Origin: an uncultured archaeon
Lineage (GTDB): Archaea > Iainarchaeota > Iainarchaeia > Iainarchaeales > GCA-2688035
NCBI GenBank assembly: GCA_964354805.1
Contig: CAYHBD010000008.1
Location: 1-64,000 of the forward strand
Length of the DNA stretch: 64,000 nt
Reading direction: 5' to 3'
Part shown: positions 8,381 to 61,153 of the stretch, one piece after another
How the letters are laid out: every line of letters begins with the position of its first letter
How positions within the stretch are numbered: the first letter of the stretch is position 1
The notes under the pieces: model-generated
The model's database searches: none
The model's input: the letters and a program-made list of their open reading frames with translations, nothing else
What the model was told of the DNA's origin: nothing
Made by a program: the position numbers and the translations under genes

Positions 8381-8938
8381 ATGAATTTTGCAGAAGCATT
8401 GTATGCAAAGCAGGCAAACGCCAAGGGCCAGGGCATGGCGATTGATTTTCTTTTTGCTGTGCTGATTTTTCTTCTCTTGCTTAACACTGTTCTTTCGCTT
8501 TGGTCAGGCAACAGCAAATCCTTTGAAAAAGAAGCTTTGTTAAGCGACTTGGGTTCAAGGGCAAGCCAGGCAATTGATTTGCTTGTAAGGGACAGCGGCA
8601 CTCCAAATGATTGGGAAACAAGAACAATTGATGATGTAAACGTAATCGGTTTGGCTAAAACAGACAGGGTTTTGGATGGCGAAAAGGTTGCGAAATTCAC
8701 TGCTTGGGCGCAAAATTTTTGGTCGGATGACTACAATAAGGTCAGGCAGAAAATGCTGCTGGCAAGCGATTTCTATTTCAGGTTAAGTGATGAAGACGGC
8801 TTGGTGCTTGCCCAAACAGCTTTGCCTCCAACAGAACTGCAAGACAAGTGGTGGGTTATTAATGTTAAAAGAATAGTAAAGTATGGAGGTGACGCTGCAA
8901 TTGCCGAGATATCATTGTATCACCCAAAATACCCGTAA
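8381..8938 (+). CDS. Minor pilin A3
   Basis: KG|QGMAIDFLFAV; GTPNDWE...IGLA...VLD motif; paralog of 15259-16605. Confidence 0.8.
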   Translation: MNFAEALYAKQANAKGQGMAIDFLFAVLIFLLLLNTVLSLWSGNSKSFEKEALLSDLGSRASQAIDLLVRDSGTPNDWETRTIDDVNVIGLAKTDRVLDGEKVAKFTAWAQNFWSDDYNKVRQKMLLASDFYFRLSDEDGLVLAQTALPPTELQDKWWVINVKRIVKYGGDAAIAEISLYHPKYP

Positions 8939-30646: not shown

Positions 30647-30692
30647 TATTATGAAAATAGAAAAGAAATAAAAGAAAGACGTGGCGCCTCAT

Positions 30693-31349
30693 TTAATAAG
30701 GAACAGAAACTTGATTTTTATCCTTTGGTTTATACACATTATATTTTATTATTGATTTCAAAGTATAGAATTCTTTAAAATGAAACCAGAGCCTATCATC
30801 TGTTCCGTTTTTTTGAAACATTATAAAATTTTTGATTGGAGTTTTGATTGAATGATAGTTAGACTTGTTTTTTCTTATCCAAGAAGCCACTAACTGAGTC
30901 GAACGCATCCACGCATCATCAAACAAAACATACCCCTTTTGATTGAGTAATAAATCAATATAATAAAAATCAATGAAGATGTCATCAAATTTATGCCCTC
31001 CATCTATAAATGCAAAATCGAACTTGACTCTTTTGCAAAGGAGTTTTGGCAATGCATTATGGGAAAAATCTTTTTCAAGTATTAGGCACTTGTCTAAATT
31101 CAGTTTTTTAATATTTTTCAGACCCAAATTGTTGAATTTATCCTCAAAAGGGTCTATAGAATAGTGTATTGAGCGCGTGGCTGAAATAATGTATGCCGCT
31201 GAGCAGCCATATGCGAAACCGACCTCAAGCGTTTTCTTGATTTTCTTTTCTCTCAAAAAAAAGTATATAAATTCAGCTGCTTTTTTAGCGAGCGGTATCT
31301 GCACAGTCTCTTTTGGGACTGCCAAGCGGTCGTAGAGGTCGGGTGCCAT
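30693..31349 (-). CDS. Class I SAM-dependent methyltransferase (Methyltransf_24-like)
   Basis: TLEVGFAYGCS, FDFAFIDGGH, GYVLFDD. Confidence 0.88.
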   Translation of the reverse strand: MAPDLYDRLAVPKETVQIPLAKKAAEFIYFFLREKKIKKTLEVGFAYGCSAAYIISATRSIHYSIDPFEDKFNNLGLKNIKKLNLDKCLILEKDFSHNALPKLLCKRVKFDFAFIDGGHKFDDIFIDFYYIDLLLNQKGYVLFDDAWMRSTQLVASWIRKNKSNYHSIKTPIKNFIMFQKNGTDDRLWFHFKEFYTLKSIIKYNVYKPKDKNQVSVPY

Positions 31350-31480
31350 TTAATTACCTTAATGTACAAATATTATTTAAAAACTCTGCAAAATCAACCA
31401 TTTGATCGTCTTTGGAGAAAAAACGTGGTTAAAAATTTATAAAAAACTTTTTAGTTCAAGTTATAGTAAGGAGATTACAA

Positions 31481-32266
31481 ATGATGAAAAGGGCACAGGA
31501 TTTAATTGGAGTTGTCCAGCTTTACCGAAATTGGCCCGTCAGGATAATGGAATTCTTCAAATTGTACCCAAATAAAAATATAAAATACAATTTGCGGAAT
31601 GGCCTTGTTTTCAATATAAGGGCTAACACTAGCGACACTCTTACTATAATCGAATGTTTTAGAAAAAAGGTTTATGATAGATACTTAAAAATAGGTTTAA
31701 GTGACAGTATAGTAGATATCGGTGGGAACATAGGTGCATTTTCAATCTATGCTGCAAGTATAGCAGAAAAGGGAACGGTTTATGCTTTCGAGCCTGTGGA
31801 AGAAAACTTCAATTTGCTTGAAAAGAATATTAAGGAGAATAATTTGCATAACATTAAAGTATTCAAAAATGGTGTTGCTGGAAAAAATGGGGAAGGAAAA
31901 CTATTCTTATCTAATAACAAAGGGGGCCACAGTATATATCCCCCAAAAAACGCGACAGGCAAAAGTGTCATTGTAAAATTTGTTTCTTTACAACAGATAT
32001 TTAAAGAAAACAAAATTAAGTGCTGCGATTTCCTCAAAATCGATTGCGAAGGGGCTGAATATGACATCTTATTTAATTGCCAACAACATATTCTAAAAAA
32101 GGTCCGAAAAATTGCAATGGAATTCCATGATATTGACCGAAATTATAACCGCTTTCGATTAAAGCAACATCTAAAGAAAAGTGGGTTTAGTATAATTGCA
32201 TTGGAGGAGCGCCCCCAATGCGAAACAGGGATGCTTTATGCTATTAGGGAAAAAAAGAAGGATTGA
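31481..32266 (+). CDS. FkbM-family methyltransferase
   Basis: VDIGGNIG, VYAFEP, LKIDCEGAE. Confidence 0.92.
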   Translation: MMKRAQDLIGVVQLYRNWPVRIMEFFKLYPNKNIKYNLRNGLVFNIRANTSDTLTIIECFRKKVYDRYLKIGLSDSIVDIGGNIGAFSIYAASIAEKGTVYAFEPVEENFNLLEKNIKENNLHNIKVFKNGVAGKNGEGKLFLSNNKGGHSIYPPKNATGKSVIVKFVSLQQIFKENKIKCCDFLKIDCEGAEYDILFNCQQHILKKVRKIAMEFHDIDRNYNRFRLKQHLKKSGFSIIALEERPQCETGMLYAIREKKKD

Positions 32267-33113
32267 TTTTAGTATAGTTACGCCAGCAAAAAATGCCGAA
32301 AAAACAATTGGCAAATGCATGGAGAATTTGCTAAACCAAAACTACCCAAAGCAAAAATACGAAATAATAGTTGTTGACAACAACTCAACAGACAAAACCA
32401 CTGATGCGATAAAACAGTATCCTGTAAAATATTTACTGGAAAAAAAACCAGGCGCAGCAGCCACAAGAAACTTGGGAATCAAAAATGCTAATGGAAAAAT
32501 AATTGCTTTTATTGACAGCGACAGATATGCTGATAAAAACTGGTTGGCAAAAGCAAAGGAGGAGTTTGATAAAAAAAGAATAAACCTGCTCGCTGGTGAA
32601 GTAAAACCTGAAAAAGGAGCCTCAAGGGTAGAAAAAATTCTTGTTGATTGGGGCATGGACCAACAATGCAGCGTTGAGTCTGGTTATGCAGCAACATGCA
32701 ACCTATTTGCAGAAAGAAGAACATTTAAAAAAGTCGGCCTTTTTGATGAAAAGGATTTATGGCTGGATGCTGAGGATGTGGAATTTTGCCTTAGGGCTAA
32801 AGACCATGGTTTTAAGCTTGAATTCTCGCCTGAAGTTATTGTATACTACAAGCCAAGAACTCTGGGGGGTGCAATTAAAAGAGAATTTAGACGTGGAAGA
32901 GCCGCAGCCCATGTTAGGCGATTGGCAAAAAATAGGGCGTATCTAGCAAATATAACAAAGAAAAGAAAACCGTTTAAGCATCTGAAACGGGTTCTAAGAA
33001 AAAAGAACAGAGACTTCCTTGACTTGCCAATTGTAATTTTTGTTTATTTTGCATTCCTATTTTCAAGCTTAGCAGGCGAGACCTACGAAAAATTGCATTC
33101 GCGATTGAAATAA
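32238..33113 (+). CDS. Glycosyltransferase family 2
   Basis: SIVTPAKN, IIVVDNNSTD, RNLG, FIDSD, AEDVEF. Confidence 0.92.
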   Translation: MLLGKKRRIDFSIVTPAKNAEKTIGKCMENLLNQNYPKQKYEIIVVDNNSTDKTTDAIKQYPVKYLLEKKPGAAATRNLGIKNANGKIIAFIDSDRYADKNWLAKAKEEFDKKRINLLAGEVKPEKGASRVEKILVDWGMDQQCSVESGYAATCNLFAERRTFKKVGLFDEKDLWLDAEDVEFCLRAKDHGFKLEFSPEVIVYYKPRTLGGAIKREFRRGRAAAHVRRLAKNRAYLANITKKRKPFKHLKRVLRKKNRDFLDLPIVIFVYFAFLFSSLAGETYEKLHSRLK

Positions 33114-33120
33114 AGATTAG

Positions 33121-34335
33121 TTATTGGGGTTCATTAAGTAAACTGCGATAAATTTTTCTGTATTTTGAAATTATGACTTTTGCACTACAGGTTCGCTTAG
33201 CAAAGACCCGCCCTTTTTTGCCCATTTTTTTCTGCAAGGAAATATCATTCAAAATAGTGGAAATTCTATCAGCTAAGGCAAGCGGGTCGTTTGGTTTAAC
33301 AAGAAAGCCATTCACACCATCTTCTACTAACTCGGGGATAGCACCAACTTGCGTTCCTATAACTGGCTTTTGGAGCGCCATTGCTTCAGCTAGAGTCCTA
33401 CCAAAAGATTCCATAGTCAAAGAGGGAAGGACAACCACATCAGAATTCTTGTAAACCTCTTTCATTTCGAAGTGATTTATAGGCCCAAGAAAAAGCACAT
33501 TGTTAGAAACACCGAAATTTACAGCCATTTTTTTATAGAAACTGTTTGGTGAGCCAGCAAGCAAAAGCTTGCATTTTCTTTCTGCCAATACTAAGGAAAA
33601 TGCCTTTAGCAGTTGGGCTATGCCTTTCCATTCAACTAATCTGCCTGCAAAAAGAATATTTCCCGTCCCATACGGGATCTTCTTATCCAAAAGCCATTGA
33701 TCATCAACAGGATTGTAAATTGTTTGACTGTGCTTGCCTGTGTGTTTTTCCAACAAGTCCGCCAAAAAATTGCTTACACAAACAGTTTTTCTAAGCCTGT
33801 TGAATTGGGCTAATCCAAAATTTGCATTTTTTAAGTAAAAATAAGAATGGATAGGCCTGAGAAAATGGTTTGCTCTATTAACCATAAGACACCTAGACAG
33901 GTTTTTGGGCGTGCAACCAGTGCAAATGCTATAATCTTTGAGCAAAAATTTGTAGCCTTGTCCGCAAAAAGGCCAAAAATTACTTATAGTTGCAACACTT
34001 TTTTTCAGCAGGCTTCCCTCCAAAGTAAGCGGAAGAGTTGTTCTGCAATCCTGACTGTGGAATATATCAAAATCTTGAGCTTTTTTCTTCAAAGAACTTG
34101 CTACGTGCAATGCGAAATATTTTTCATTCAGACCATAAAAGTGGGGTTCAACACGCAATTCGTTTAAATTTTTTATCTCAAACCCTTCAACATAATTTTT
34201 AGGTTTTTTCGTCGTTGTAAAGACTGTTACTTCGTCACCATGCTTTGCTAGCTCTTTAGCAAAGTAGTATGTGTTGATTTCAATGCCGCCAATACATTCA
34301 GGGATAAAAAATTCACTTAGCAAGGCGACGTGCAT
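33121..34335 (-). CDS. Glycosyltransferase family 4
   Basis: GGIE, FAGRLVEWKG, ESFGRTLAEAMA. Confidence 0.92.
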   Translation of the reverse strand: MHVALLSEFFIPECIGGIEINTYYFAKELAKHGDEVTVFTTTKKPKNYVEGFEIKNLNELRVEPHFYGLNEKYFALHVASSLKKKAQDFDIFHSQDCRTTLPLTLEGSLLKKSVATISNFWPFCGQGYKFLLKDYSICTGCTPKNLSRCLMVNRANHFLRPIHSYFYLKNANFGLAQFNRLRKTVCVSNFLADLLEKHTGKHSQTIYNPVDDQWLLDKKIPYGTGNILFAGRLVEWKGIAQLLKAFSLVLAERKCKLLLAGSPNSFYKKMAVNFGVSNNVLFLGPINHFEMKEVYKNSDVVVLPSLTMESFGRTLAEAMALQKPVIGTQVGAIPELVEDGVNGFLVKPNDPLALADRISTILNDISLQKKMGKKGRVFAKRTCSAKVIISKYRKIYRSLLNEPQ

Positions 34336-35242
34336 AAGGAAATACCTTCATACTAATTGATTCCCACATATAACCTGCTTGCTGCAGAAGAAAGCTTGCT
34401 GAAAGCAGGACTAAGACAAGTGGAAAGTGTTTCTTGCGAATATTTTCTCTAAGGATATTTTTTGAAGACCAAAGCCTTAGCGAAATGAACTTGCTTACGG
34501 ATCCAACCTTTTTCCTAAAATGGTAGTTTGCCCTGCCCCTCTTAAACTGCCATCTAATAAAAGTAAGCAAGCTTGCTCTGGGCGTATGTAAAACAGTTGC
34601 ATCAGGGCAGTATTTTATTTTAACGCCAGCCCTTGTCAATCTGACAGACAATTCAGCATCCTCCGCACCATGCTTAAGAGATTCATCAAATAACCCAACT
34701 TCATCAAATACTCTTCTTTTTATTACAACATTGCCAGTGGCAAGGTGGTCTGTAAAACCGTTGCTTGAAACGTGCCACATTTTGTCAAAGCCAACAGAAC
34801 CACCGCCAGGAAAACCCAAAGCGGAAATGGAGGTTCCGATAAAATTTGAATCAGGAACCATTGTGCCACCTGTGGCAACATGAACATCATCGCCGATTGA
34901 ATCCAACAGGTTTTCAAGCCAATCCTCTTTAGGCACGCAGTCTGAGTCAATAAAAGTAATGAACTTGCCTCTCGCGTTTTTTACACCCATATTTCTGTTA
35001 AAAGCAACGCCCTTGCCAGATGGAATCTTCACAATCCTGCAACCATCGAACAAAACAAGGTCTTCTGCTGGTACAGGCACTTCGCTTACAACAATTGTTT
35101 CATAGTTTTTGCTGGTTTTCTGAACCCTAAGTTTTTCCAGCAACTCTATAAGGCTGCCATCAATCTGGTTGGTTACCACAACTACTGAAACGGCAGGGCA
35201 GTAGTTTTTTACACCGATAACACTGTTGCTATTTGCTTTCAT
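34313..35242 (-). CDS. Glycosyltransferase family 2
   Basis: RNMG, FIDSDC, FDESL...AEDAEL. Confidence 0.9.
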   Translation of the reverse strand: MKANSNSVIGVKNYCPAVSVVVVTNQIDGSLIELLEKLRVQKTSKNYETIVVSEVPVPAEDLVLFDGCRIVKIPSGKGVAFNRNMGVKNARGKFITFIDSDCVPKEDWLENLLDSIGDDVHVATGGTMVPDSNFIGTSISALGFPGGGSVGFDKMWHVSSNGFTDHLATGNVVIKRRVFDEVGLFDESLKHGAEDAELSVRLTRAGVKIKYCPDATVLHTPRASLLTFIRWQFKRGRANYHFRKKVGSVSKFISLRLWSSKNILRENIRKKHFPLVLVLLSASFLLQQAGYMWESISMKVFPYARRLAK

Positions 35243-35330
35243 GAAACCCCCAAACCAATGCTTTTGCAACATACCCCATTTATAAAATAAACCAAAGTAA
35301 GCTTCATAAATAAAATGGTTCTATGAGTTA

Positions 35331-36821
35331 ATGACTATTATGGGGGCATTATTTAAAACTGGCTTTTATTTGAAGCTGTTTTTGATTGTAGCGATAGCAA
35401 TTTTCTTCATTATGCAATTTAACAGATTGAGCAGTCCTTATGTTATTTCAGATGAAGCGTATTATGCCTTAAAAAGCTGGCTCATTTTCAAGGACCCTGC
35501 ATCAATACTTTCAGAGGAAACATACGTAATATACCGCCCTGTAACCTATCCAATCTACCCCCCGTTACTGCCTGCACTTTTCGCCCCATTAAATTTGCTC
35601 TTTGAACCGATGGCAGCATTTCGGTTGGGAGTCTTGCTGTTTTCACTAATTGCAATCTTTTTAACTTACTTAATCGGCAAAAAATTGTTCAACCCAGAAG
35701 TAGGCACAATAAGCGCGGTTTTGCTTGCATTTTCAGCGACATTCTTTTACTTTAGCACAAGAGCATTTTTGGACATACCATTGCTTGCAATGGTTTTAAT
35801 TGCTTTTCTTTTGGTGCTTGATTTAAACAGAAAAAAGATAGTGTTGCTTGCATTGGTTTTTGCAGGAATATTCTTTTTGAAGACTGAGGGATTAATTACC
35901 ATGCCTGCAATTGCTTTGGTAGCAGCTGTTAAATACAAGGAAAAAATAAATGTAAAAAAAATATTTCTCATCATCTGTGCATTATTGCTTCTTTTTATTC
36001 TTTTTATGCAAGTGGTTCCTGGTGGTCCTGGCGCCCCCAACCTTACATGGCTGCGGTATATCCAAAGCAACCCACTGATTTATTTCTGGCTCTTCGGGCA
36101 GCAGCTGATTGTTTATACTCTTGGATACGCGCTAATCCCGTTCCTGATACTTGGGTTCTATTGCCTTCACAAAGAGGGAAAGGAAAAATTGGTCATACCG
36201 CTTGTTTTGATTTACGCCACAATCGCCCCCTTCTTCTTGTTTGACATAATTAACAGCAGGTATTTTATTCCCGCAATCCCGGCGTTCTGTTTTGTTGCAG
36301 CATATGGAATCACTAAAATAAACCTGCCAAAATTAAAAAGCAACTATCTTTTGCATTTTGCCATAACTGCGATTATTTGTACTTTACTAATACAATTTTC
36401 AACATACTTGCGCTATGACAAATTTGATTGCAATGATTACACTGAATTACGCCAATGGCTTGAGCAGAATATATCAAGTGAGGACAACATTGTTTTGTTT
36501 TCAAATTCTTATGACATACGGGGAATTGGCTTGCAGTCCTATCTTGTTTTAGATAAGTTTAATAAAGTGCCAATAAGGAATCCAGGAAAGCAAGAATTTG
36601 AATCACTGCTGCAAAATTGCAGGGGGAGCATATTTGCCATTTATGATGAATTTACCACACAAATTGGCTTACCGCCACATGCTGTTTGGGTATTCCTTGA
36701 AGAAGGCGGTGCAGAGGCTTACCTAAATAAAAAAGGCTTTCAAAAAGTGATTGAAATGAGACAAAAAGCAGCGCCGTGGGCTTGGAAGGGGCACTTTTAT
36801 ATCTTCAGAAAGAAGTGTTAG
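35331..36821 (+). CDS. GT-C fold membrane glycosyltransferase (PMT_2/ArnT/GT39-like)
   Basis: SDEAYY after TM1, YPPL, multiple TMs, RYFIP motif. Confidence 0.85.
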   Translation: MTIMGALFKTGFYLKLFLIVAIAIFFIMQFNRLSSPYVISDEAYYALKSWLIFKDPASILSEETYVIYRPVTYPIYPPLLPALFAPLNLLFEPMAAFRLGVLLFSLIAIFLTYLIGKKLFNPEVGTISAVLLAFSATFFYFSTRAFLDIPLLAMVLIAFLLVLDLNRKKIVLLALVFAGIFFLKTEGLITMPAIALVAAVKYKEKINVKKIFLIICALLLLFILFMQVVPGGPGAPNLTWLRYIQSNPLIYFWLFGQQLIVYTLGYALIPFLILGFYCLHKEGKEKLVIPLVLIYATIAPFFLFDIINSRYFIPAIPAFCFVAAYGITKINLPKLKSNYLLHFAITAIICTLLIQFSTYLRYDKFDCNDYTELRQWLEQNISSEDNIVLFSNSYDIRGIGLQSYLVLDKFNKVPIRNPGKQEFESLLQNCRGSIFAIYDEFTTQIGLPPHAVWVFLEEGGAEAYLNKKGFQKVIEMRQKAAPWAWKGHFYIFRKKC

Positions 36822-39736: not shown

Positions 39737-40933
39737 TTGAGAATTGTTTTTGTAACTAGCTGGGCTCCGAGGCACTGCGGCATCGCAACTTATACTGCCG
39801 AGCTTGCCAGGGCTTTGAGGGAGCATGGGCACGAAGTCCATATTGTCACTTTTTCTGACGGCGGCAAAAAAGGCGAGAAATTCGTCCACCCGGTTTTAAA
39901 GGTCAACAAGCGGACCAGGCAACTGATTGACCCTTGCTGGGACGAAAAATTATACAATGCAATTAACAAAATCAAGCCTGATGTAGTGCACTTGCAGCAC
40001 GAGTATGGCTTGTATAGATCAGATGACGATTTCAGTTCCGGCTTGTTCAGGCCGTTCTTCAGGTGGAGGGTTGAAGCTGCTTTCCCTGTTGTTGCAACAT
40101 TCCACAGCGTTTACACTGCTTTGGACAGGATGGAAAGCTGTTACATGGATGTTGCATTAAAGCTGATTGACGCAGGAGTTGTTCACGAGGAATACCAGAA
40201 GATTTATTTGCCTGAAAACATTGGAAGAGTTGCACCGAATGTTTACGTTATACCGCACGGGGCAAAAGACATAAAGCCGTACAAGAACGCAAAAGAAGAG
40301 CTTGGGTTAATGGGAAAAAAGGTTGTTGGATTGATCGGATGGTGGGAGCCGAACAAGGGCTTTGAAAGGGTTGTAAAAATCTGGCCTCAAATCAAGAAGC
40401 AGCTTGGAAAAAGGGCAGTTCTGGTTATAGCTGGGGATGCAAGGCCAGGAAGCAAAAGCGGGCAAATGTACAAGCCAAAATTAGTGCAGGCAATCAAGAG
40501 AAGCAGCGCGGCAAGCAGCATCAAATTGATTGTTGGCGCTTTCCCGCCACAGGAATATGACAAAATTCTTTCATCATTTGATTTAATGGTTTTGCCTTAC
40601 AGCAGGGCATCGCAAAGCGGAAACCTTGCGCATTCGTTTGCATTGGGCGTTCCATGCATTGCAACGGCAATGGAAGGGCTTAAAGCAGAGATTGAGAACA
40701 GCAAGGGCGGGGTAACAGTGCCGCCTGATGATGACGTGGAATTAATGCACGCAATAGCCCACGTAATGAAACATGACGAGCTAAGGAAAAGGTATGCGGA
40801 AAATGCCGCAAAGCATGTAACAAAAGAGATAAAGTGGAGCATTGTTGCAAGAAAACACACGGCATTGTATGAGAAATTGATTGCGGATTTGGCTGAGGAA
40901 TGCAAGCCAAAAAAGAAAGAGTATTTGCTGTGA
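39737..40933 (+). CDS. Glycosyltransferase family 4
   Basis: PRHCGIATYT, HLQHEYG, VIPHG, LPY...QSG. Confidence 0.9.
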   Translation: MRIVFVTSWAPRHCGIATYTAELARALREHGHEVHIVTFSDGGKKGEKFVHPVLKVNKRTRQLIDPCWDEKLYNAINKIKPDVVHLQHEYGLYRSDDDFSSGLFRPFFRWRVEAAFPVVATFHSVYTALDRMESCYMDVALKLIDAGVVHEEYQKIYLPENIGRVAPNVYVIPHGAKDIKPYKNAKEELGLMGKKVVGLIGWWEPNKGFERVVKIWPQIKKQLGKRAVLVIAGDARPGSKSGQMYKPKLVQAIKRSSAASSIKLIVGAFPPQEYDKILSSFDLMVLPYSRASQSGNLAHSFALGVPCIATAMEGLKAEIENSKGGVTVPPDDDVELMHAIAHVMKHDELRKRYAENAAKHVTKEIKWSIVARKHTALYEKLIADLAEECKPKKKEYLL

Positions 40934-41113
40934 GAATTATAAATTATTTTTATAATGTGGGTTGGAGAAATTACGGCAATGCATTTGCTGCAAAAAAAAG
41001 CACATTAATTCAAATGTGCGGGAAAACGAGCATTTGCTGTAAAAGCGGGGTTTGCAACCGCATAGTATTCGTGGTTTGCAATTTAAGGGGATTTGCTAAA
41101 AGAGGGGCATTTT

Positions 41114-42328
41114 ATGCGAAAAAATGATTGGGTTCATTTTCTGGGTTCCTTTCCGCCGAGGGAGTGCGGGATTGCAACATTTACAAAAGACCTTGTCACG
41201 GCAATTGACCAATGCAAAAACCCTGGTGTTGAATGCAGGATTGCTGCAATGAACGACAACCTTTACTCAACATACAATTACCCAAAGCAGGTAAACATCC
41301 AGATCCACGAAGACGACCAGGAATCCTATTTAAGGGCGGCTGACAAGCTGAACAAAAGCAGGAAAACGCAGCTTGTATGCATCCAGCACGAATTCGGCCT
41401 GTTCGGCGGCAGCTTCGGCGAATACCTGATTCCGTTCCTTGAGGAATTGCAGAAACCAATTGTTACAACTTTCCACAGCGTTCTGCCGGGCGTGCCGAAA
41501 ATTGAAAGGCACAGGAAATATGTCGTGAAAAAAATCTGCCAGAACAGCGAAAAGGTTGTTGTAATAAGCGGTTTCGGAAAAGACATCCTGATGCAAAAAT
41601 ACGGCATACCGGAAGAAAAAATTGCGGTCATTCCGCACGGCGTTCCCTCTATTCCATTCAGGCAGGAGGAGAAAGCGAAAAAGGAGCTTGGCTTTGAGGG
41701 AAGAAAAATTTTAAGCACTTTTGGCTTGATGAGCAAAAGAAAAGGAATCCACTATGTTATCAAGGCATTGCCAAAAATAATAGAACAAAACCCGGCGGCA
41801 TTGTATCTGGTTATTGGGGAAACACACCCGCAGGTTAGAAAGCACGAGGGGGAAAAATACAGGAACTACTTAAAAAAAATTGTTGGAAAGCTGAACCTGA
41901 AAAACCACGTAATGTTTGAAAACAGATACTTAACGCTGCAGGAAATATGCAAATACATCCAAGCAACAGACGTATACATAACTCCGTATTATGACCCTTA
42001 CCAGATAAGCAGCGGAACACTGGCTTACGCTGTTGCTTCCGGGACTGCGTGCGTTTCCACTCCGTATTTGTATGCGAAGGATGTTTTGAGGCATGGGAGG
42101 GGCATTCTTGTCCCATTCCAGAGCAGCAGGGCAATTGTCAATTCTGTAAACAGGGTTTTGAGCGACAGGCAATTCAGGCTGTCGATTGAAAGGAAGGCGT
42201 TCAATTACACGCAGGGCTGGCAGTGGCCCAACATTGCTGAAAGCTATCTGCAATTGTTTGAGGAAATATTGGGAGGCAATAAATTAAGGGCAGCACAAGC
42301 GCAAAAAAACTCGGTTGCAATTGCATAG
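41114..42328 (+). CDS. Glycosyltransferase family 4 (paralog of upstream gene)
   Basis: PPRECGIATFT, IQHEFGLFGG, VIPHG, TPY...QISSGTLAYA. Confidence 0.92.
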   Translation: MRKNDWVHFLGSFPPRECGIATFTKDLVTAIDQCKNPGVECRIAAMNDNLYSTYNYPKQVNIQIHEDDQESYLRAADKLNKSRKTQLVCIQHEFGLFGGSFGEYLIPFLEELQKPIVTTFHSVLPGVPKIERHRKYVVKKICQNSEKVVVISGFGKDILMQKYGIPEEKIAVIPHGVPSIPFRQEEKAKKELGFEGRKILSTFGLMSKRKGIHYVIKALPKIIEQNPAALYLVIGETHPQVRKHEGEKYRNYLKKIVGKLNLKNHVMFENRYLTLQEICKYIQATDVYITPYYDPYQISSGTLAYAVASGTACVSTPYLYAKDVLRHGRGILVPFQSSRAIVNSVNRVLSDRQFRLSIERKAFNYTQGWQWPNIAESYLQLFEEILGGNKLRAAQAQKNSVAIA

Positions 42329-44219: not shown

Positions 44220-45509
44220 TCAAATTGACAAAAGAACTTTTTTTCCTGTTGCATCAGCAAGAACAGCCTGCAGTCGCTGCTGCAATGCAATCTGCTGCTG
44301 CTGCATATTTTTCAGCTGAGCCTTTTTCTCATGCAACTGCCCTTGCATTTGCTCTGCATCTTTCTTTGATTGGTTCAATTCATTCAGCATGTTTCTCTCT
44401 TTCTGCTCCGCAGGCAGCTGCTGCAATTTTTTTTCAATAGCAGCAAGCTGGGCATCCAGCTGGTTAAAGCGCCAAAAAACCCTGTCAAAAAAATTGAATG
44501 CAATCAGCTCGTGCAATGCAGCCAGGCGCTTTTCCCTTTCTTTATCCTTCAACTCAATCGTGCCCTGCTCAATTGCCTTTTCAGCCTCCGCCAGCAACTG
44601 CTTTAATTTAATCGCCTTGGGGTCGGCCCTCAATGCATCAAAAGGGTTTGTCAAAATCTCGCGCAGAAAAACAGACAACTCTCTCTCAAGCGAAAGCTTC
44701 CCTGCACTAACTGCCTTCTGCATCCTGTGCAACGGCCTTTCAACCTTGCTGAACAAATCAATTGTTTCGGTTTTCGCGCCCTGCTTTGAACGCAGCAATT
44801 CAGCTTTTTCGCCGTTCAAAGCATTAATCTGCGCGAATTCATCACTCTGCTGCAGGCGCTGCAATGCCTGCTGCTGCCCAGCAATTTCCTGCTCCAGCCC
44901 GGCAATGCTGTTCTGCAATTCCTCAATCTCCTTCCGTGTTTTCTCAATGGCATCGGCTTTAGCCACCAAATCCTTTACAGCGGTGCTTACACTCTGCTGC
45001 AGAAAAACAGAGTTTGCACCTGAAAAATCGGTTTGCAGGCCGGAAAAGCACTCGCTTAGCTGCCTGAAAGTGTCGCCAAGGTTTTTTACCTGCTGCTTAA
45101 AAGAAATCGAGGTATAAGCAATGTTTTTTCCAAACAGGCCTATTTCCCTCTGCAACAATGCACTTGCATCAATGCAGTACTGCCTTACAACAGCAGGCTC
45201 GCTTGCTGCAGGAGGCTGCAGTTTCTCAACCAAAGCCGCAAGCTGCCTCTCCGCATTGCTCTTTGCAGTGCTCACAATCTGCTGCAAGCGCTTGTTATCG
45301 CTCTGGGCATCGGCTTTGCGCAGTTCTCCAAGCAATGACTGCAATTGCCTGAGCAGATGCTTTATTTCAGCCAGCTTGCCTGCAACAGCCAAATCCAATT
45401 GCCTGCTCTGCCCTGCAACGCTGTCCGAAAAAAATTGCTGAACCAGGTCCAAACGCAGCTCAATTGGCTTCTCTTCCTTCTTTCCAAAAATTTTATCAAA
45501 AACGCCCAT
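44220..45509 (-). CDS. Coiled-coil hypothetical protein
   Basis: Start MGVFDKIFGKK at 45509; Q/E/L-rich heptads. Confidence 0.75.
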   Translation of the reverse strand: MGVFDKIFGKKEEKPIELRLDLVQQFFSDSVAGQSRQLDLAVAGKLAEIKHLLRQLQSLLGELRKADAQSDNKRLQQIVSTAKSNAERQLAALVEKLQPPAASEPAVVRQYCIDASALLQREIGLFGKNIAYTSISFKQQVKNLGDTFRQLSECFSGLQTDFSGANSVFLQQSVSTAVKDLVAKADAIEKTRKEIEELQNSIAGLEQEIAGQQQALQRLQQSDEFAQINALNGEKAELLRSKQGAKTETIDLFSKVERPLHRMQKAVSAGKLSLERELSVFLREILTNPFDALRADPKAIKLKQLLAEAEKAIEQGTIELKDKEREKRLAALHELIAFNFFDRVFWRFNQLDAQLAAIEKKLQQLPAEQKERNMLNELNQSKKDAEQMQGQLHEKKAQLKNMQQQQIALQQRLQAVLADATGKKVLLSI

Positions 45510-45584
45510 GGCAAATAAATTACTCAAAAAAAGGGAATTTAAAGGAATAGCAATCTTGCCGGAAAAACAAAAAAGCGAAAGTGA

Positions 45585-45640
45585 AAAAAAGCCTCCTTGC
45601 AAAACCAAAGGTTTTGCGAGGCATCGTAAAGCTTCGCTTT
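45585..45640. repeat. Hairpin pair, reverse-complement copy of 3870-3930
   Basis: AAAAAAGCCTCCTTGCAAAACCAAAGGTTTTGCGAGG vs reverse complement of 3894-3930 (1 mismatch); AAAGCTTCGCTTT. Confidence 0.8.
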
Positions 45641-51019: not shown

Positions 51020-54000
51020 TTATTTTTCTTCCAGCAACTTGTTTGTTTTGGCAAGCTTGGCTTCAATCTTGCCCTTTATCTCAAGGAACTGCTTCTGCTT
51101 CATAACACCTTTTTGGTGCATTTTTTCAAACTGCTTCAATGTGCTTCCGAGCTCCTTCTTTTCCGTTTCAAGCTCCTGCTTTGTTTTGATGAACTTTTCA
51201 AGCTCAAGGAGATTTTTATTGAGTTCCTTTTCAAATTCGCTGAAAATCTCTTCGGTTGCCAGCCCGTTTTCCTTCACTTTTTTCATTGCAGCAAGGCTTT
51301 CCAGCAGCTCTGCTTTCTCTTTCAGCGCCTGCTCCCTTGTCTTGGGGATGGTTCTCTTAAGCCCTTCAATTTCCTTTTTCTGCTCCTCAATCTTTCTTTC
51401 AAGCGCGTCAACTTTGAGTTCAAGGGCGGTTTCCTTTTTTTCCACTATTGTTCCAAGGATTGTTTTAGGCATTGGCTGCGGCTTTTCAATTTGCCTTGAC
51501 AAAATTGCGGTTTCTATTTTTTTCTTCCACTTGTCTGTCTTGGCAAGCTCCTTGAGTTCGAAAATGAAGGTTTCCTCTTCATCTTTGTCCATTGGCTTTA
51601 CAGAAATGCTAAATGTGCTGTCTGCAATATCTATGTTTTTGATTTCAAACAGCCCTGCCTGCCTTTTATTCTGCTGCGTGGCCTTCAACGAGGAAAGAAT
51701 TTTTCGCAGCTCCCTTGCAAACACTATCATAACTAAAATTAAGGCAATAAATGCCGCGGCAATTATGCCAAAGGTAATAAAATCTGGTGAAACAGCCAGT
51801 GGTGCGGCAATTCCGGTTTCCTTCGGCATTTCATACACAATAGTCAATAATTCGAACAGCATCTTGCTCTCGTTCAGCCCGGCAAAGTTGATTTTGTCAT
51901 TGTTGTAAATCGCAAGCACAAGGCTCTGAACACCCTTCCTGTACGATGCATTAACATTGAATGTAATCCTTTTCTGTTCGCCGGCCTTGATTAAAAAATC
52001 GTGCTTTTCTTTTTCTATCTGCCAGTCTAAAGGCACGATGAGAGAAACGCCTATGTTCATGTCCTGTTTGCCCCTGTTGAGCAGCAAAACATCAACAGAG
52101 CCTGCGCCTTCCATGAAAATCTTTGAAGTGCGGATATCCAACACGACAATTTCGCTTTGAAGCTCCCCTAATACCCTAAAGATTAATTTTGCTTCTTTGG
52201 AATCCTCTTTGCTTGAAATCCTTACCGTTACTATGTGATCCCCAAATTCGACGGTTGATGGCACACTTACCTTTAAAACAAAGGATGACTCCTCGTTCGG
52301 GTTCAGCTCTGTTTTTTCCTGTTCCAAACCGTAAATGAACGGCCCGTCAAGCGAGAGCGCAAGGCCTGTAAGCTTGCCATTGCCTATGTTCTTTATCCTG
52401 ATTTCAATGAATCCAATACTGCCTCTCATGATGGCCTTTTCGCTCGGCATCTCTATAATTGAAATTATTCCCTTCCCGCCACCAGGCAGGACCGCGAATC
52501 CCCCTCCACCGCCACCTGCTGCTCCCCCGCCGCCGGGCGGCTGGGGTGTCTCTGGGCCCTCTTCTGTTGCAGTGAACTGCTTTGAGGCTGCGCTTGTTTC
52601 ACTGCCATAATAAACTTTTACCTTGAACCAGTAGGTTTCCAGGTTATTTGCGTTAAGCGTCAAATCGGGATTCCAGCTCTGGTCTGCAAGAATTGATTTT
52701 GCGCCGGATGCGTAGTCAATATCATCTCCTCCGCCGCACTGGTTTGTCTGCTCTGAAACAATGCAGTATTCGTACTGGTATTCCTGGCTGGTTGTTCCCT
52801 CGTTTGTTATTGTAACGTTCGCGGTGATTGTCGGAACAGTTGTGTCTGTGATTGCATTTATTTTGACTTCAGGCGGGTTTCCGGTTAGCTCCCACCAGTC
52901 GCTTGGCTTTACAGTTGAGCCATTGACGGTAACAGAAGCAATAGTTTCCCACATTCCCGCGGTCTGCCCGCTTGTTGAACTGAAACTGTATGTGTATATC
53001 CCTGTTTCCGAAAAATTCATGTCAACATTTTCCACAATTTTGTTCCTTGACGGGTCATAACTTGTTATTTTCGGGGTTGAATCCGCATTCTTCGGGCTTC
53101 CGTTGAAATCAAACACCCACAACTTTGCATAATAGATTGCGCCTGGCTCGATTTTTTGAAAATCGCTCAGTATTGCAGTGAACTTTTGTATCTGGCTTGT
53201 GTGAATATTGTGCACTGTATCATTTACATCGTTTAGAATTGCCTGCATTGTTGAAAGTGCAGAAACAATAGTTTGCTGGCTTGTGTTTATGTCTGTCACA
53301 ACGCCCTTTATTGTGGTGATGTCTGTTTGAATGCTTGAAACTGTTGTGTTTATGTCGCTTGTTGCCCTGTTTATGTCTGTGACAGCGGTGTTGATATCTG
53401 TCACTATTATTTTTGTGCTCTGCACAATTGCATTTATGTCAACTATCCTTGAATTCACGTCTGAAATCATCGACTGCGTGGCTGCAGCGCTTTGCTTCAA
53501 AGAATCTGTGTCAGAAAGAATTATTTGGGTTGCCTGGTTTAAGTCCAGAACGCGTGAACTAATTGCCGTAGAGGTGCTGTTTATGTCCAAAACAGTTGAA
53601 GAAACAGTGTTTACTGTGGAGTTTATGTCTGAAACGCCGGATTCAAGCGAATCAGTATAGCCTTGGATGGTTATAAGCCTGTTGCACACATCATTTCCTC
53701 CAGGAGAAGTGCAGTTTAGCTCGTTTAAGATAAGTAAAAGGTTTTCGTCTATTGCAGTATGGGCTGTTTCAAGCGTGTCAACATAGCCGATTATTTGCAG
53801 CAAAGAAAGCGCGGTTTGGGAATTGAAATCGTTCAATGCTGCGTTTATGTCTGAAAGCCTTTGGCAAACGCTTTCTGCGGGAAAACTTGAACAATCCAGC
53901 ATGCTTTCTACATCGTTCAAGCCTGTTCTAACCAGTTGAATGTTCTCGTCAACAAGGATTATTTTCTCCTTTATAAAATTGCTCGTGGTGTTTATGTCTG

Positions 54001-57000
54001 TTACTGTCAGCAGGATGCTGTTTGACGTTGAATTTATTGTGCTGACTGTTGCGCTGATTGAATTTGCGGTTGAATTTATGTCATTGGTTGTTGCGCGGAT
54101 TCCCATGACTGCGGAATTCAAATCCAGGAGCCTTAATGAAAGCGCGTCAAGCTTTCCACAGATACTGAGTGATGGCACAAAAGAGCAAGCGTTCAGGGTG
54201 TTGTTTATGTCAACCACTGTCGAATTTACGGTATTAATCCCTGAGTTGACATCAGATATGGATGAGCTAAGCTGGCTCAGCAGGCTGTTTGAACCCGCAA
54301 CAGCATTGTTGATATCTATTGAATAACCGAGCACCTGCAAAAGTGTTGAATTGAGGTCTGTTATTGAAGCTGTGGTTATCAGGTTTGTTTTTATGAAATA
54401 AACATTTGCATCAATTCCCTGCAAGAGGGTGTTCATGTCAGTAAGGCTTGCTTGAACAGTGTCAATTTTTGAGTTGATTGCGTTAACAGTTGAATTGATG
54501 TCTCTTACAATTGAGTCAATAGAACTCGTAGTCGCATTAATGTCCTGCACGAGGAAGAATATCTGGTAAAGCGTGTAATTCTGGTCTGCTGTCAAGCCAC
54601 CGCTTACGGTTCCACCAGAAGCTGTTGCCGAAGACTGGTTGACATCAAAGGATGCTGCGCACTGGAACCGGTTTGTTCCAATGTTCTGGTCTATAATGAG
54701 ATTGTAGCCTCCGCCTGTTGAAGGCGCGATGAAGAAATTGTAATACCAGCCGGATTCGAACTCATTCAGGGTGTAGGATGACAGCAGGCTGAAAGCCGGA
54801 TTGTAAAGCTTTACCTGCGGCGACAATCCGCTTAGCGGCGCTGCCGAAGGCCCGAGCATTAGTGCCGCGATTGAGACATTTGAATCAAGCATCCAGGAAC
54901 CCGGAACAAACAATCTGCAGCTTGACTGGTTTGTGGAATAGCTTCTCAAAGCGGCAAGATCATCAAGCAAAAGCTCGTATGTCTCGTTCGTGTTGAGGTA
55001 AACCGCCCTGAAATCAGGAACCTTATGCAAAGTTTCAGTCTGGGCATAATATCCGTTTATGTCCAAAATCCTCTGCCGGGCATTCGCGCATATTGTCTGC
55101 GCCGCTGGGGTGAGCAGGACACTGCAGTAGTTTTCCACTTCCGCCGAATAATAATTCGCATAATTGTAATCATGTTCTATGTCGGTGAAATATTTGTTTC
55201 CCGAAATAATTGTTGCGGTTTTGGTTTCGTTCTGCAAAAAATCCTGACTAAGATAGATTACTGGGTTGCCATAGGCATCAAATGAGAGGCGGTAACTTTC
55301 ATTGTTCAGGTCCGCAACCACAAAGATCTGCACAAGCGGAGTTTCCCCAATGGTTACGGACCGTATCTGGTCCGGGTCAACCGCCTCAGATAGCTGGTAA
55401 TAAAGGATGTAATCTGAAATCGCATTTGGAACAAGGTTTTGCAATGTCGCGATTTGCGTGACAGCCTGCCTGTTTGCATCTGAAAACTGGAAATTATTTG
55501 TTATCAGCACGTCTGCGAGCACGGCACTTACCGCGAACGAGCTTGTTGTATACCCTGTGTTGGATGATGTTGCCGCGGTTATTGTGGCAACATATATTCC
55601 ATTGGCAGCATTCAAATCCAAAATTGTGGAATACGTGTATGTTCCGCTGCCGGCATTTGTCATTGAAACATTGCTGACAAGCGTGTTTCCTGTCGGGGAA
55701 ACTATTGAAATAGTGAGGTCTGCATCCGTGATTGCCAAGCCTGTTATGACATCGGATACAGCCGCTGAAAACACAATCAAATCCCCTGCCTTGTAGGCAG
55801 TCTGGTTCAATGTAACAATTATTGAAATAGGGGAAACCTTGAATGAAACCGTGCCATTTATGTCGTCGTTGTTGTAGTTTGCCTTGAAGAAGTATAACCC
55901 TGCTTCAGCAGTGTTTGGAACAGTGTATGAATATGAAAAATCGCCGTTTCCATCGGTTGTTGTCTGGTAGGTCAGAAGCGGAACCGTGGGCTCGCTGTTT
56001 TTGAAAAGCTGCACTATTATCGGCGCGTTTGCAAGCCGCGCGCTGTTCTTCATCATGAAACCATTAAGGTCAATTGTTTCAAGGCGCAGGTATTCCCTTG
56101 AGTCCCTTGAAAGAATCATGAATGCAGTGTTCTTCCAGTCCCTGAGCAAAAACTGGGTCTGGTAACGCGCATTCGTCAGGTCTGGAAAAACCACGCGGAA
56201 AAGCGTGTTGTAATCATCAGGGTTGTTGCTTGTGTACAACATATCAACGGTTATTTCAGTTGCTGAAAGCATTGGATTAACGACTTGTTCAGTCACAAAA
56301 TCATAAGTCGGATTGGCTACCACTGTTGTGTCAAACCAGCGGTTATATATGTAATCCCTAATAACTGAATATTCCCTGTCAGACTGGTAATATGGCGACC
56401 ATGGCCTGGTTACGCCCAAAACACCAGGGCTGTAAGTGTAAATCAGGGTGGTTGTTGTTGCAGGAACAAGGCAAAAACTTTTCGATTCGGCTCTTGAAAA
56501 ATCGCAGTGCCATGGCTGTGAATTCGGATGCTTTACTCCCTCATTTAGTTCGGTAAATGAGTCAACAACCTGGGTGTAATCGCTATAGTGGCTGTAATCC
56601 CAGAGCGAATTATGCCTTGAATAAAGCGCAGCATCAATCCCAAGGTCGGTAATAGCTGTTGTTTTGTTTGGCCTGCCATCCATCACATGCTCGGCCCAGC
56701 TTGCTGTAATCGCGGCAGTCGGGTAAAGGGATGCCCTTGCAGGCCTGAAAGACGCGTATTTTTCGATATTGTCAAGCGTGCTTGGGCAGAATACGCCCTC
56801 TGTTGCCGGGGCAAAGTTGTTTATCCAGCCAGGGCCCAAATCAAAGTCGCCGTACTGGTTTGCTGCAAAGTTCCAGTTGCACGGGCTTTGATAATAAGTC
56901 ATGTTTTGGTCTGCCTTGCTCCAAAAGCCTGATTCATCATATGCTTTTTTGTTGAATGCAAAGCTTGGAGCCCATGCATAGCGGGTCTGCCCGGCAAGCT

Positions 57001-60000
57001 GCTCTGCGCCTGTTGTGGTGTATGCGTGAATCACAAAAGGAAAAGAGCTTGAAGTGAAAAACCATTTTCCCCAAAAGTATGTTGATTTTTGGGTAAACGT
57101 ATAATCCAAAGAGCCATTGACTGACAATGAGCCGGAGGCAGCGTAGAGGTTGGAGGGATAGACAGGGTCAGGCCTTGCGTTTTCACCGACAATCACATTT
57201 ACATCCCGCTGGAAAAGGAAAAAGGTTCCAAGCGAGCCAACGTTGGTAGTGAATTTTATCACAGAAGTGGCGCAAGAGATATTGTTTCTGTTGGAAGTCA
57301 CCAAGTGCGTTGAAGAGCTTGAAATAAGATTGCTTAAATCGCTTAGGAAATCGTCAAAACCCTTGTAGCCATATTCTTCGGAAGGGCAGACATCCAAAAT
57401 GTAAGAACTGAGTTTTGCTGATGTTCCGTACTGTGCGTTCAGGGCAAGAGGCGGAAGCCACCTGTTTTCCCTGTTGTCCGGAATGAAAAGGTTTGGCTTC
57501 AAATAAAACTTTGCAATCAGGTTCGGGTCAACATACTTGTTCAAGCCGGTTCCGTAAATGCTTTCCTTCGGGAACGCGTTCACGTAACCATTGTTCCCAA
57601 CCGAGGGAATTGATGTGTTCAGGTCGGAATCGCAGGAAATGAAATCAGTTGTGTACGCGCTTGTAAAGGTTGTTGCGCCGGTTGCATCTGTAGGGCCAAC
57701 CGGCCGCCATGAAAAATACGGCCAGACCTTGTGCACTGTGCAGCCTTTGCCTGGCTTTGCGTTTGAGGAACTCACGTTAACAAAATGCTCTCCGTTGTAA
57801 TCAATAGTGAACATCAATGGCAATGGGGTCGGTGTCAATACCGCGGTTTTTTTGTCAGCAGAAATTGTTGCGGGAACATATGCGTCCATTAGTTCTTTCC
57901 TGCCGCTCCAGTTGAACCAGTCGTTGTTGTATGTTCCCTGCGGAACCAAAGAATAGGTTCCCCAAAAATAATATGGGTGATAATTTTGGCTTATTCCAGT
58001 AGTCATTACAACAAGCGGAGCGTCAAGCTTTGTTTTTACCCTCACTCTCCCATTGTTGTTGAAAAAATACCAGGTGGACATTATTTTTCTCGTCTGGGCA
58101 GAGCCCAGATGCGGTGTCGCAGTAATGTTGGCTGTGTTCATGTCCATTCTTGCGAAAATTTTTTGGTTGGCGCTTCTCTGATAGCATCTTGAGGCAAAGA
58201 CATTCACTGCTGTTCCACAAGTGCTTCCGCTTGCACAAAGCCCTTCAGCGGTTGTTCCAGCGCCTGTCCCTGTAGTCTGGGCATTCATGTAACCCAAATT
58301 CAGGGTGTAGTGAGTTGTTGAAGCAAACCAGCTTTGATCGTTGCCGTCAAGCTTGAACCTCACTGTTTCTGTTGCACCGCCTTCTCCAATATTAGCCCAG
58401 CTGAACCAGCTCTGGCTGTTTACATCAATAGAGTCTGTTCCGGCAGCGCAACTGCCTGAAACATTATAAACAGCCAAGTCTGAATAGCCTGGAGCAATCA
58501 TGCTGACTGCCGGCGCGTTATAATAAAGTCTGTACTGCTTTGTTTGGTCTTTTGCAAAATTGTCCTGTATGAAAAGAGCATAGTTTGTGTCCACAAAGCA
58601 GGTGTTTGTGTTTGCGTCAACCTGCCACAGGCCGGCAGGGCTGCTTGAGGCAGGCAAGCCAATTATGTTGTTTGATTCATCTGTTACAATCAAGTCAGTG
58701 CAATCAGGCCTTATGCCCCCGGTCAAATTAACGTCAAACCAGAACACTTCCGCGTTCCTGTCAAACAAGCCAGGCTCTGTTGCATTAAAGTCAACCCTGT
58801 TGGAATAGGCGTTTCCGTCAATTGTATCTCCCGCCACATTTTCTGACACGCTTATAATCATCGGGTTTGCGATTGCGTTTGTGTCCTGCTCAACATACTG
58901 CCAGTGCCTGTTTCCGTCAACCCCGGAGCCCTTTGGCTTGAACAAAAAATATGACTCGTGCCACTGCCGTAATGCCGGATTAACATTGTTGAAGTCAAGG
59001 GTTGCATCAACATGGTCGTAAATGTAAGAGGTCGCGGCAGCAGTGTTGCTGAAAAAAGTTGTCCGTCCCCAGTGGTTGCTCCATACTTCGTTTTGGTCTG
59101 CGCCAAATCGCGTGGCAAAGCCAAGCACCTGGTTGTAACCGCTGTTGTGGTCTGAAAGCCATGCCCAGTTGTCTGTTCCGAATGTTTTTGTTATCGGAAA
59201 ATTGTCCCATTTTTTTGGCGTTACCAGTGCATAAGTGGTTGTTCCTGACAGATACACTCCATTTTGAGTATGCCCTAAAGTAGCATGGTTTAAGTCAAGG
59301 TTTTCATAAAGGCAATACCTGTTTAGAATATGCCAGCCGAATAAGTTATTCGTGTAAAGAGTTGAAGGGCAGTGACCTGGTGCTAGGCTGCCGTCAATTG
59401 TGTCAATGGCCCCGTACATAAACCTCAAATAATTGTATGGCGTTGGGTTTGGCTGGGCTGTTACTGTTGTGACGTAGGCAGTCATTATTCTCGGGTCCAT
59501 GAATTGCGAGCTTGCGGTTTCTGTTGCCGTGAACTCGCTGAAGGCATTTATTGTGCTGAATCTAAGATAGCTGGTGTTAAATCGGTTGTCATCGGTGTTA
59601 ATGACCATTCCATTTCTGTCAACCGCCTTGAAATTAAAACTTGCATATTCATTGCTGTAAAAAACGTTTTTTGTCGGGTTCATTACAAAAGAATAAAGGT
59701 TTGTGTTGCCCCTAACCCAAAGGTTAGCGTCAGGAAAAGATTGAACGTCTACATCGTTTTTTGAAATCTTCTGGATTCTGCCGTTTGAATAAACGGGGTA
59801 AATGAATCCATTGACATCATTATCAATCCAGAGAGTTTGCGGGCTTCCATGCGTCGCTCCAGTTCCATAAGCAGCAGTGCTTGCAGGAGCCCAGGAGCGC
59901 CAGTTAACCCAGCCGATTGTTCCATCGGATTTTCTTATCTGGATTATTGGTGCGCCCGCAATTCCTGTACCTGTGCCAAGAACCGGCGCCTGCACTACTG

Positions 60001-61153: not shown

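Follow-up and report, generated by a model that had tools for sequence, protein, structure and literature searches.

Why should one short tripeptide, Asp-x-Asn (D-x-N), recur so often in a single giant surface protein of an uncultured archaeon? The protein in question, 3377 amino acids long, is encoded on the minus strand at positions 51020-61153 of the window, by which we mean the whole stretch of 64,000 nucleotides that was analysed. The window belongs to contig C8 of a 1.38 Mb assembly, in 49 contigs, of a DPANN archaeon of the phylum Iainarchaeota. The protein carries 76 D-x-N where its own composition would give 15.7, and in 2000 shuffles the observed number was never reached. From comparisons of sequence we put the probability that D-x-N is a lineage-specific N-glycosylation sequon, one that would need no Ser or Thr at the +2 position, at roughly 0.55, which makes it the best supported of the readings considered here.

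From its N terminus the giant protein consists of a signal peptide, an ectodomain with Ig, PQQ-propeller and MG2 domains, a coiled-coil stalk, a NEW3-like domain, a transmembrane (TM) segment and a cytoplasmic coiled-coil tail. The non-repetitive ectodomain (residues 36-2140, positions 54734-61048 on the minus strand, as are all parts of the gene) has Pfam matches to a PQQ-type propeller and to MG2. It is followed by a heptad coiled-coil stalk of 600 residues (2141-2740; 52934-54733), in which 30 D-x-N are observed and 4.3 expected. The excess does not come from the stalk only, as residues 1-2140 hold 45 D-x-N against 11.0 expected (z 10.2; the second-ranking pair motif has z 3.3). The membrane-proximal ectodomain (2741-3110; 51824-52933) has one motif where 0.9 are expected, and the TM segment with the K/E-rich cytoplasmic tail (51023-51823) has none where 0.2 are expected. 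The first-pass annotation, made from the letters of this stretch, had estimated some 75 motifs in the protein and some 47 before the stalk, close to our 76 and 45. It had also pointed to their absence from the tail; the zero is correct, but with an expectation of 0.2 it carries no information.

The signal is narrow. D-x-N is the sole outlier among all residue pairs at spacings 0-4 in the giant protein, in which E-x-N, D-x-D, N-x-D, N-x-N and D..N at other spacings are all at or below expectation. For example, E-x-N occurs twice in the ectodomain against 4.5 expected, and across the exported proteins of the genome its observed-to-expected ratio (O/E) is 0.84. The signal also acts at the level of the protein, because the matching nucleotide pattern GAYNNNAAY is confined to the coding frame (76, 0 and 5 occurrences in frames 0, 1 and 2). 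These frame counts, together with a reverse complement that is not enriched, rule out a DNA-level motif. The Asp codons inside the motif show a mild preference for GAC (53 GAC to 23 GAT), compared with 60 to 63 for the other Asp codons of the gene. About one third of the motifs are followed by x-S/T, as had been noted at first reading and as a full listing bears out; the proportion is near background before the stalk and about a half within it. In the stalk, the 4-3-4-3 spacing of hydrophobic residues around the motif places D at heptad position c and N at position e (φ-x-D-φ-N-S/T-T, φ being hydrophobic).

Is the excess a property of this protein or of the genome? Genes were called with an in-house script based on open reading frames (ORFs) and codon usage, and export was judged from hydropathy alone. 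Across the whole genome the O/E of D-x-N is 0.97 in 892 cytoplasmic proteins and 2.0-2.1 in approximately 200 exported proteins. The comparison of secreted with cytoplasmic proteins that had been proposed as a check (about 2.1 versus 0.97) thus comes out in favour of the motif, and shuffling, proposed as a means of refuting it, failed to do so. The distribution of the excess is bimodal, with about 15 surface proteins reaching 3-7 times expectation and others of the same folds not exceeding 1. The rich proteins have unrelated folds (LamG, PKD, MG2/propeller, VWA pilin and S-layer-like). They include a second giant on contig C42 (123 D-x-N against 24 expected) and a 1279-residue protein on contig C35 (50 against 8) whose Sec signal, C-terminal anchor and basic tail give it the architecture of an S-layer glycoprotein. 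Further examples are LamG and PKD proteins, a protein with a weak S_layer_C match, and two proteins of the window, namely A4, a pilin-like VWA/LVIVD adhesin (8883-12698, plus strand; 17 against 4.9), and A5, an exported protein (12797-13843, plus strand; 7 against 1.7).

The exported proteins that are poor in D-x-N (O/E at or below 1) include four proteins of 2500-2900 residues with an N-terminal anchor and B4, a pilin-like VWA adhesin of the window (16544-20518, plus strand; 3 against 5.2). Two Sec-exported proteins of contig C9 lack the motif altogether, a PKD protein (L010:100-2466, minus strand; 3.6 expected) and a VWA protein (L010:5368-8085, minus strand; 3.4 expected). Since exported proteins of similar size and the same folds are at or below 1, the motif is placed selectively and is not spread over all exported proteins. 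A fold-specific motif is ruled out by the presence of the same Pfam folds in rich and poor proteins and by the distant LamG proteins described below, which pool at 0.94. Small pilins have 4 motifs where 3.5 are expected, with a D and N content too low to be informative. The earlier counts of about 16, 7 and 3 motifs in A4, A5 and B4 are close to exact, and so was the statement that the ATPase has very few (a 519-residue product of the ORF at 25778-27337, with 1 against 1.2 expected). The same annotation suggested that B4 may be a more recent, un-ameliorated acquisition. This has to be given up because orthologues of B4 across several genera of family f1 (37-44% identity) are equally poor in the motif.

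A 2556-residue exported protein of a relative from another order, G052, has no D-x-N either, against 6.1 expected. Together with the two proteins on C9, it may reflect active avoidance of the motif in some exported proteins.

Beyond this genome, the survey covered six other genomes of the class Iainarchaeia, each sampled over 100-200 kb. In every one of them one or more large surface proteins show an excess of D-x-N, which in five is highly significant: 60 against 8.1 expected in G037, 71 against 17.3 in G004, 20 against 8.5 in G024, 46 against 10.7 in G052 and 15 against 5.0 in G038. The sixth, G041, has a weaker excess (12 against 5.1). In a control genome from the Woesearchaeota, run through the same pipeline, exported proteins have an O/E of 0.96 for D-x-N and 1.69 for N-x-S/T. 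The pipeline therefore does not create the D-x-N signal, and it detects an ordinary sequon excess where there is one. No over-representation of N-x-S/T in exported proteins was seen in this genome (1.08) or in four relatives from the same order (1.03-1.18 with this genome included). The cytoplasmic proteins in the G037 and G038 samples are depleted in D-x-N, with O/E values of 0.72 and 0.64, compared with 0.97 here.

The residues around the motif were tallied in the D-x-N-rich proteins. In this genome Pro is avoided at +1 (3 against 15.7 expected) and at -1 (8 against 15.7), and in the six further samples it occurs once at each of these positions against about 8.3 expected. Ser or Thr stands at +2 in 23% of cases, compared with a background of 17%, and most relatives show no excess there. 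Asp is depleted at +4 from the motif Asp (15 against 30.3 expected), and this rules out the Ca2+ loop D-x-N-x-D as a general cause.

Further evidence comes from homologues. The family of the giant was assembled from two homology searches, which gave 16 proteins, and from two additional loci of public genomes. Six members of Iainarchaeota type (58-100% identity) have D-x-N at 2.7-4.9 times expectation and N-x-S/T at 0.96-1.2 times, whereas all ten other representatives, the Woesearchaeota type included, have D-x-N near 1 and N-x-S/T at 1.6-5.2 times. A locus from the Woesearchaeota, for example, has values of 1.04 and 1.84. One of the canonical homologues (D-x-N about 1.0, N-x-S/T 1.6) lies on LBWB01000040.1, labelled Candidatus Woesebacteria of the Candidate Phyla Radiation (CPR). 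This 6.3-kb contig of a bacterial metagenome-assembled genome is filled by the giant homologue (37% identity) and is probably a mis-binned archaeal contig, or else the result of cross-domain transfer. The LamG family behaves similarly on the side of D-x-N: 14 close homologues have 2.7-4.5 times expectation, and among the 106 distant LamG proteins mentioned above no single significant case was found.

The two motifs also share sites. In the globular part of the giant, 29 of 45 D-x-N sites coincide with an alignment column in which one or more of six canonical homologues have a sequon Asn; for all other i,i+2 pairs the share is 11.7%, and for pairs that contain D or N it is 21.8%. A cross-correlation of the aligned positions peaks only at offsets 0, where N lies on the sequon Asn, and -2, where D lies on it. 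Of the D-x-N Asn residues that are retained as Asn in a canonical homologue, 62% belong to an N-x-S/T sequon there, compared with 19% of the other conserved Asn. The -2 register can be reached by two single-base changes (Asn to Asp and Ser/Thr to Asn) and keeps the same face of the strand. In the stalk, read by eye, the homologues of N-x-S/T type have N-S-T in the same heptad register. Among orthologues the D and the N are kept or lost jointly, with an odds ratio of 8.9 compared with 1.6 for other i,i+2 pairs; each residue by itself is conserved no better than other D or N in this family.

If D-x-N is a sequon, what would read it? A single STT3/AglB gene is present in the genome, on contig C39; its match to PF02516 (70 bits) is above the cut-off. 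The product has the STT3 membrane domain with the catalytic Asp in external loop 1 (EL1), the acidic metal motif and the Glu of EL5, and among 31 sequences D45, E161, D163 and E353 are invariant or nearly so. In a profile alignment Glu353 falls on E360 of the A. fulgidus AglB (GE on E360), and the AglB profile matches 3RCE, the structure of PglB, with an E-value of 1.9e-4. In known enzymes the WWD motif hydrogen-bonds the hydroxyl of the +2 Ser/Thr, and the pocket is completed by Lys from the DK motif, or by Ile in PglB (PMC7226087). It had been suggested that these peptide-binding motifs be inspected for changes, and changes are what we find: the AglB of this genome has WWNNG instead of WWD, and DMFSTMG with a Thr instead of the pocket Lys.

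The change is not private to this genome. Of 48 aligned AglBs from the phylum, 32 have WWD and 16 have WWN, WWS or WWG. With the D-x-x-x-K stretch taken as the DK-type motif from its position, all 16 lack its Lys, and most WWD forms keep Lys or Arg. Control AglBs from the Nanoarchaeia, the class of the Woesearchaeota control, have WWD in all 26 readable cases. These counts come from related genomes and so overstate independence; nevertheless the pattern suggests that the pocket was lost repeatedly and as a unit, and that it is dispensable in this phylum.

A second feature of the enzyme concerns the Asp. Throughout the phylum EL5 reads (S/T)VGEE(N/S)xGxxxFGxKYN, in which Lys364, 11 residues after the catalytic Glu353, is invariant. 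No conserved basic residue occupies this place in the controls (SVSENQPP or TVAELN). In PglB, R331 lies 12 residues after E319 and binds the -2 Asp, and yeast Stt3 has D362 there (PMC7226087). By analogy, Lys364 is a candidate reader of the -2 Asp. AglB is present in 77 of 81 genomes of the phylum, and because N-x-S/T is not enriched in exported proteins, the enzyme would have no evident sequon if D-x-N were not its target. Several relatives also carry ORFs of 470-525 residues whose similarity to AglB (25-30% identity) is confined to its N-terminal membrane part (e.g. G001:C60, G007:C39, G035:C10 and G077:C29), and these may be short paralogues of the GT-C class of glycosyltransferases without the WWD domain.

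Taken together, we infer a system in which AglB/STT3, as a single-copy gene the simplest writer, would attach a glycan from a lipid carrier to the Asn of Asp-x-Asn while exported chains, still unfolded, leave the membrane. The -2 Asp, possibly read by Lys364, would take over the recognition role that the +2 Ser/Thr holds elsewhere. Selection would then pack the motif into proteins that benefit from a glycan coat, such as S-layer-like proteins, giant adhesins and some proteins of the pilus tip, and would keep it out of others. The first-pass annotation had ventured that Asn may be modified in a D-x-N context independently of the +2 residue, and with the homologues and AglB compared this has become the favoured explanation. 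A wider form of it holds that the whole phylum has rewritten its N-glycosylation code from N-x-S/T to D-x-N, with an AglB that reads the -2 Asp irrespective of +2 Ser/Thr. Once freed from Ser/Thr, the pocket of WWD and Lys could decay repeatedly and the sequons of surface proteins could be converted in place. For this wider claim we regard the odds as about even.

The nearest known relative of such a rule is the extended sequon of Campylobacter PglB, D/E-X1-N-X2-S/T, in which Pro is disfavoured at both X positions (PMC7226087, PMC4894442). D-x-N shares with it an acidic residue exactly at -2, the aversion to Pro at both positions, the restriction to exported proteins and, with Lys364 as the candidate, a basic residue soon after the catalytic Glu of EL5. 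It differs in that only Asp is used, the +2 Ser/Thr appears unneeded, the enzyme is an archaeal AglB and the Ser/Thr pocket of that enzyme is degenerate in a third of the phylum. D-x-N is thus not a member of the PglB system, though it would work like its acidic -2 rule. With the canonical AglB/STT3 system (N-x-S/T, WWD, DK/MI) it has in common the enzyme family, the retained catalytic Asp and Glu, the classes of substrate (S-layer-like proteins, adhesins and pilus proteins) and the sites in homologous proteins. What sets it apart is an N-x-S/T ratio of 1.0-1.2 in exported proteins, compared with 1.69 in the Woesearchaeota control, and an AglB with WWN and no pocket Lys.

Several observations weigh against a sequon. 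Glu at -2 is not used, unlike in PglB, and D-x-N is absent from many exported proteins. In the homologue comparison the -2 register is as frequent as register 0, and an Asx-turn common to both motifs could also account for it. Furthermore, the relatives G037 and G004 have an AglB with both WWD and Lys and show the same motif without a +2 Ser/Thr preference. We see no relation between the state of the pocket and the use of Ser/Thr at +2 when these WWD genomes are compared with the WWN genome. Decay of the pocket is therefore not required for the motif, as two thirds of the AglBs in the phylum keep WWD and Lys; if the two are linked at all, loss of the pocket follows from the motif rather than causing it.

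The remaining objections come from the S-layer-like family (nine sequences, 31-100% identity, 48-55 D-x-N each) and from structure models, and they bear on the strongest competing explanation, that D-x-N has a structural role in beta-rich surface proteins. As such it would be an Asx-type cap or a metal (Ca2+) or lattice-contact site, with no covalent modification. In this family the motif residues are by far the best conserved: at 58% identity 94% of the Asp residues in the motif are retained, against 49% of other Asp, 22 sites occur throughout the nine sequences, and D-x-N pairs make up about 46 of about 110 invariant columns. To judge from these alignments, such conservation is more suggestive of structure or binding than of the turnover typical of sequons, or fits a structural or ion-binding role no less well, although sequons with a structural glycan coat can also be conserved. 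Many sites also share one context, a turn-to-strand junction of the form D-φ-N-φ-x-φ with the motif on the exposed face at the start of the strand. Both AlphaFold2 models are of low confidence (mean pLDDT 53 for the giant and 54 for the S-layer-like protein), and that of the giant covers residues 1-1200 and is usable only at about 10-480 and 730-880. In the S-layer-like model a predicted strand begins 1-3 residues after about 20 of the 50 sites. The 21 modelled sites of the giant include about 10 in hairpin turns or loops immediately preceding a strand, about 7 within strands, 1 in a helix and 1 at a helix start. New sites close to lost ones ("hopping") occur in 37% of cases in the S-layer-like family, against 12% expected, an excess that alignment slippage could produce; none were seen in the family of the giant.

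A structural role has difficulty with other parts of the evidence. The motif also occurs in the alpha-helical heptads of the stalk, and as i and i+2 point to opposite sides of a helix, no single structural role can account for the helix and the strand contexts alike. Other lineages, and further proteins of this genome, have the same folds without the motif, and in the family of the giant the motif residues are conserved no better than the other D and N. The placement of N-x-S/T on the same homologous columns, and the mutual exclusion of the two motifs, would be left unexplained. Ca2+ binding was the alternative offered in the first-pass annotation. Asp-x-Asn is indeed a spacing known from the Ca2+ loops of EF-hands and dockerins (DxNxDG), integrin FG-GAP repeats and cadherins (DxNDN), likewise found in extracellular beta-rich proteins, and the stretch LDANADGN of A5 resembles such a loop. 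However, D-x-N here is accompanied by no further acidic residue, as the depletion of Asp at +4 argues against loops of the DxNxD or DxNDN type; it is found in strands and heptad helices too, and it is specific to a lineage and not to a fold. Ca2+ is weakened by this, and metal binding survives as one form of the structural explanation, which as a whole we consider unlikely.

A more doubtful possibility is that the motif is read by something other than AglB, either an enzyme that modifies Asn or Asp in another way or a chaperone or an assembly factor with affinity for the motif in its unfolded state. D-x-N has the traits of a linear motif, being specific, limited to exported proteins, averse to Pro and independent of secondary structure, and it coexists with AglBs whose Ser/Thr pocket is intact. 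Moreover, the window itself holds a candidate enzyme in a cluster for glycan assembly (29417-36821, mixed strands, lower G+C). The cluster encodes a Wzx/MurJ-like flippase (29417-30646, minus strand), an FkbM methyltransferase (31481-32266, plus), a glycosyltransferase of family 2 (GT2; 32196-33113, plus), a GT4 (33121-34335, minus), another GT2 (34313-35272, minus) and a GT-C enzyme resembling PMT_2 and GT22 and matching both families in Pfam (35331-36821, plus). Three GT-C membrane transferases had been named as candidate writers, of which this is the only one with GT-C matches in Pfam; the ORF at 1162-2646 matched no family, and the product of 44220-45608 resembles a coiled-coil protein. 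In a BLASTP comparison of the two polytopic ORFs with AglB no match was found. What speaks against another reader is that the positional match to sequons and the exclusion of N-x-S/T point to the same kind of modification, that no second enzyme was found to co-vary with the motif, and that AglB would again be left without an evident sequon. The cluster could have a part in glycosylation by AglB as well, as a possible source of the donor glycan, a link with the motif that we infer only. Two further GT4 genes lie on the plus strand (39737-40933 and 41093-42328).

An artefact of composition, repeats, DNA-level signal or the foreign origin of a few genes, for which one could cite the repetitive stalk and the position of the giant gene on an island, is refuted by shuffles that never reach the observed count, by the z of 10 in the non-repetitive part, by the frame-specific DNA pattern and by the excess in unrelated resident proteins and in six other Iainarchaeia genomes, and we give it practically no weight.

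The origin of the giant gene is a separate question. Homologues were found in 3 of 215 other genomes of the phylum that were searched, two from family f3 (63-64% identity) and one from family f31, and in none of the 22 genomes of its own family. Such a distribution agrees with the position of the gene on an island and suggests transfer within the phylum, yet the gene is fully rich in D-x-N.

To our knowledge, N-x-S/T is regarded as the rule shared by N-glycosylation in each of the three domains of life, and WWD as its fixed reader. We found no paper that describes a D-x-N sequon without Ser/Thr. Short Asp-containing linear motifs across many exported proteins of one phylum do have a precedent in the general O-glycosylation motif of the Bacteroidota, D-(S/T)-(A/I/L/V/M/T). 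That motif differs in acceptor residue, spacing and enzyme class, and is a parallel rather than a relative. What is new here is the dichotomy within protein families, the site-by-site match with N-x-S/T, the paired loss of the WWD Asp and the pocket Lys seen against a control, the candidate Lys364 and the B4 orthologue test. If D-x-N is a sequon, the N-glycosylation code can be replaced within a phylum, and this would explain how the loss of the supposedly invariant Asp of WWD is tolerated in a third of these AglBs. It would also provide glyco-engineering with a natural oligosaccharyltransferase that has a short, Ser/Thr-free sequon, and the prediction of glycoproteins from sequons in DPANN archaea would need to change.

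Two minor observations concern the assembly and the window. Contig C12 (1709 bp) has a G+C content of 0.61, compared with 0.41-0.44 in the other eleven contigs listed, and may be a contaminant. Directly upstream of the ATPase gene, an ORF on the plus strand (22717-25593) with no Pfam match encodes 958 residues of low complexity, rich in A, K, E, P and R and with just 1.7% D and 0.6% N. The region of this ORF has the strongest AT and GC skew within the window.

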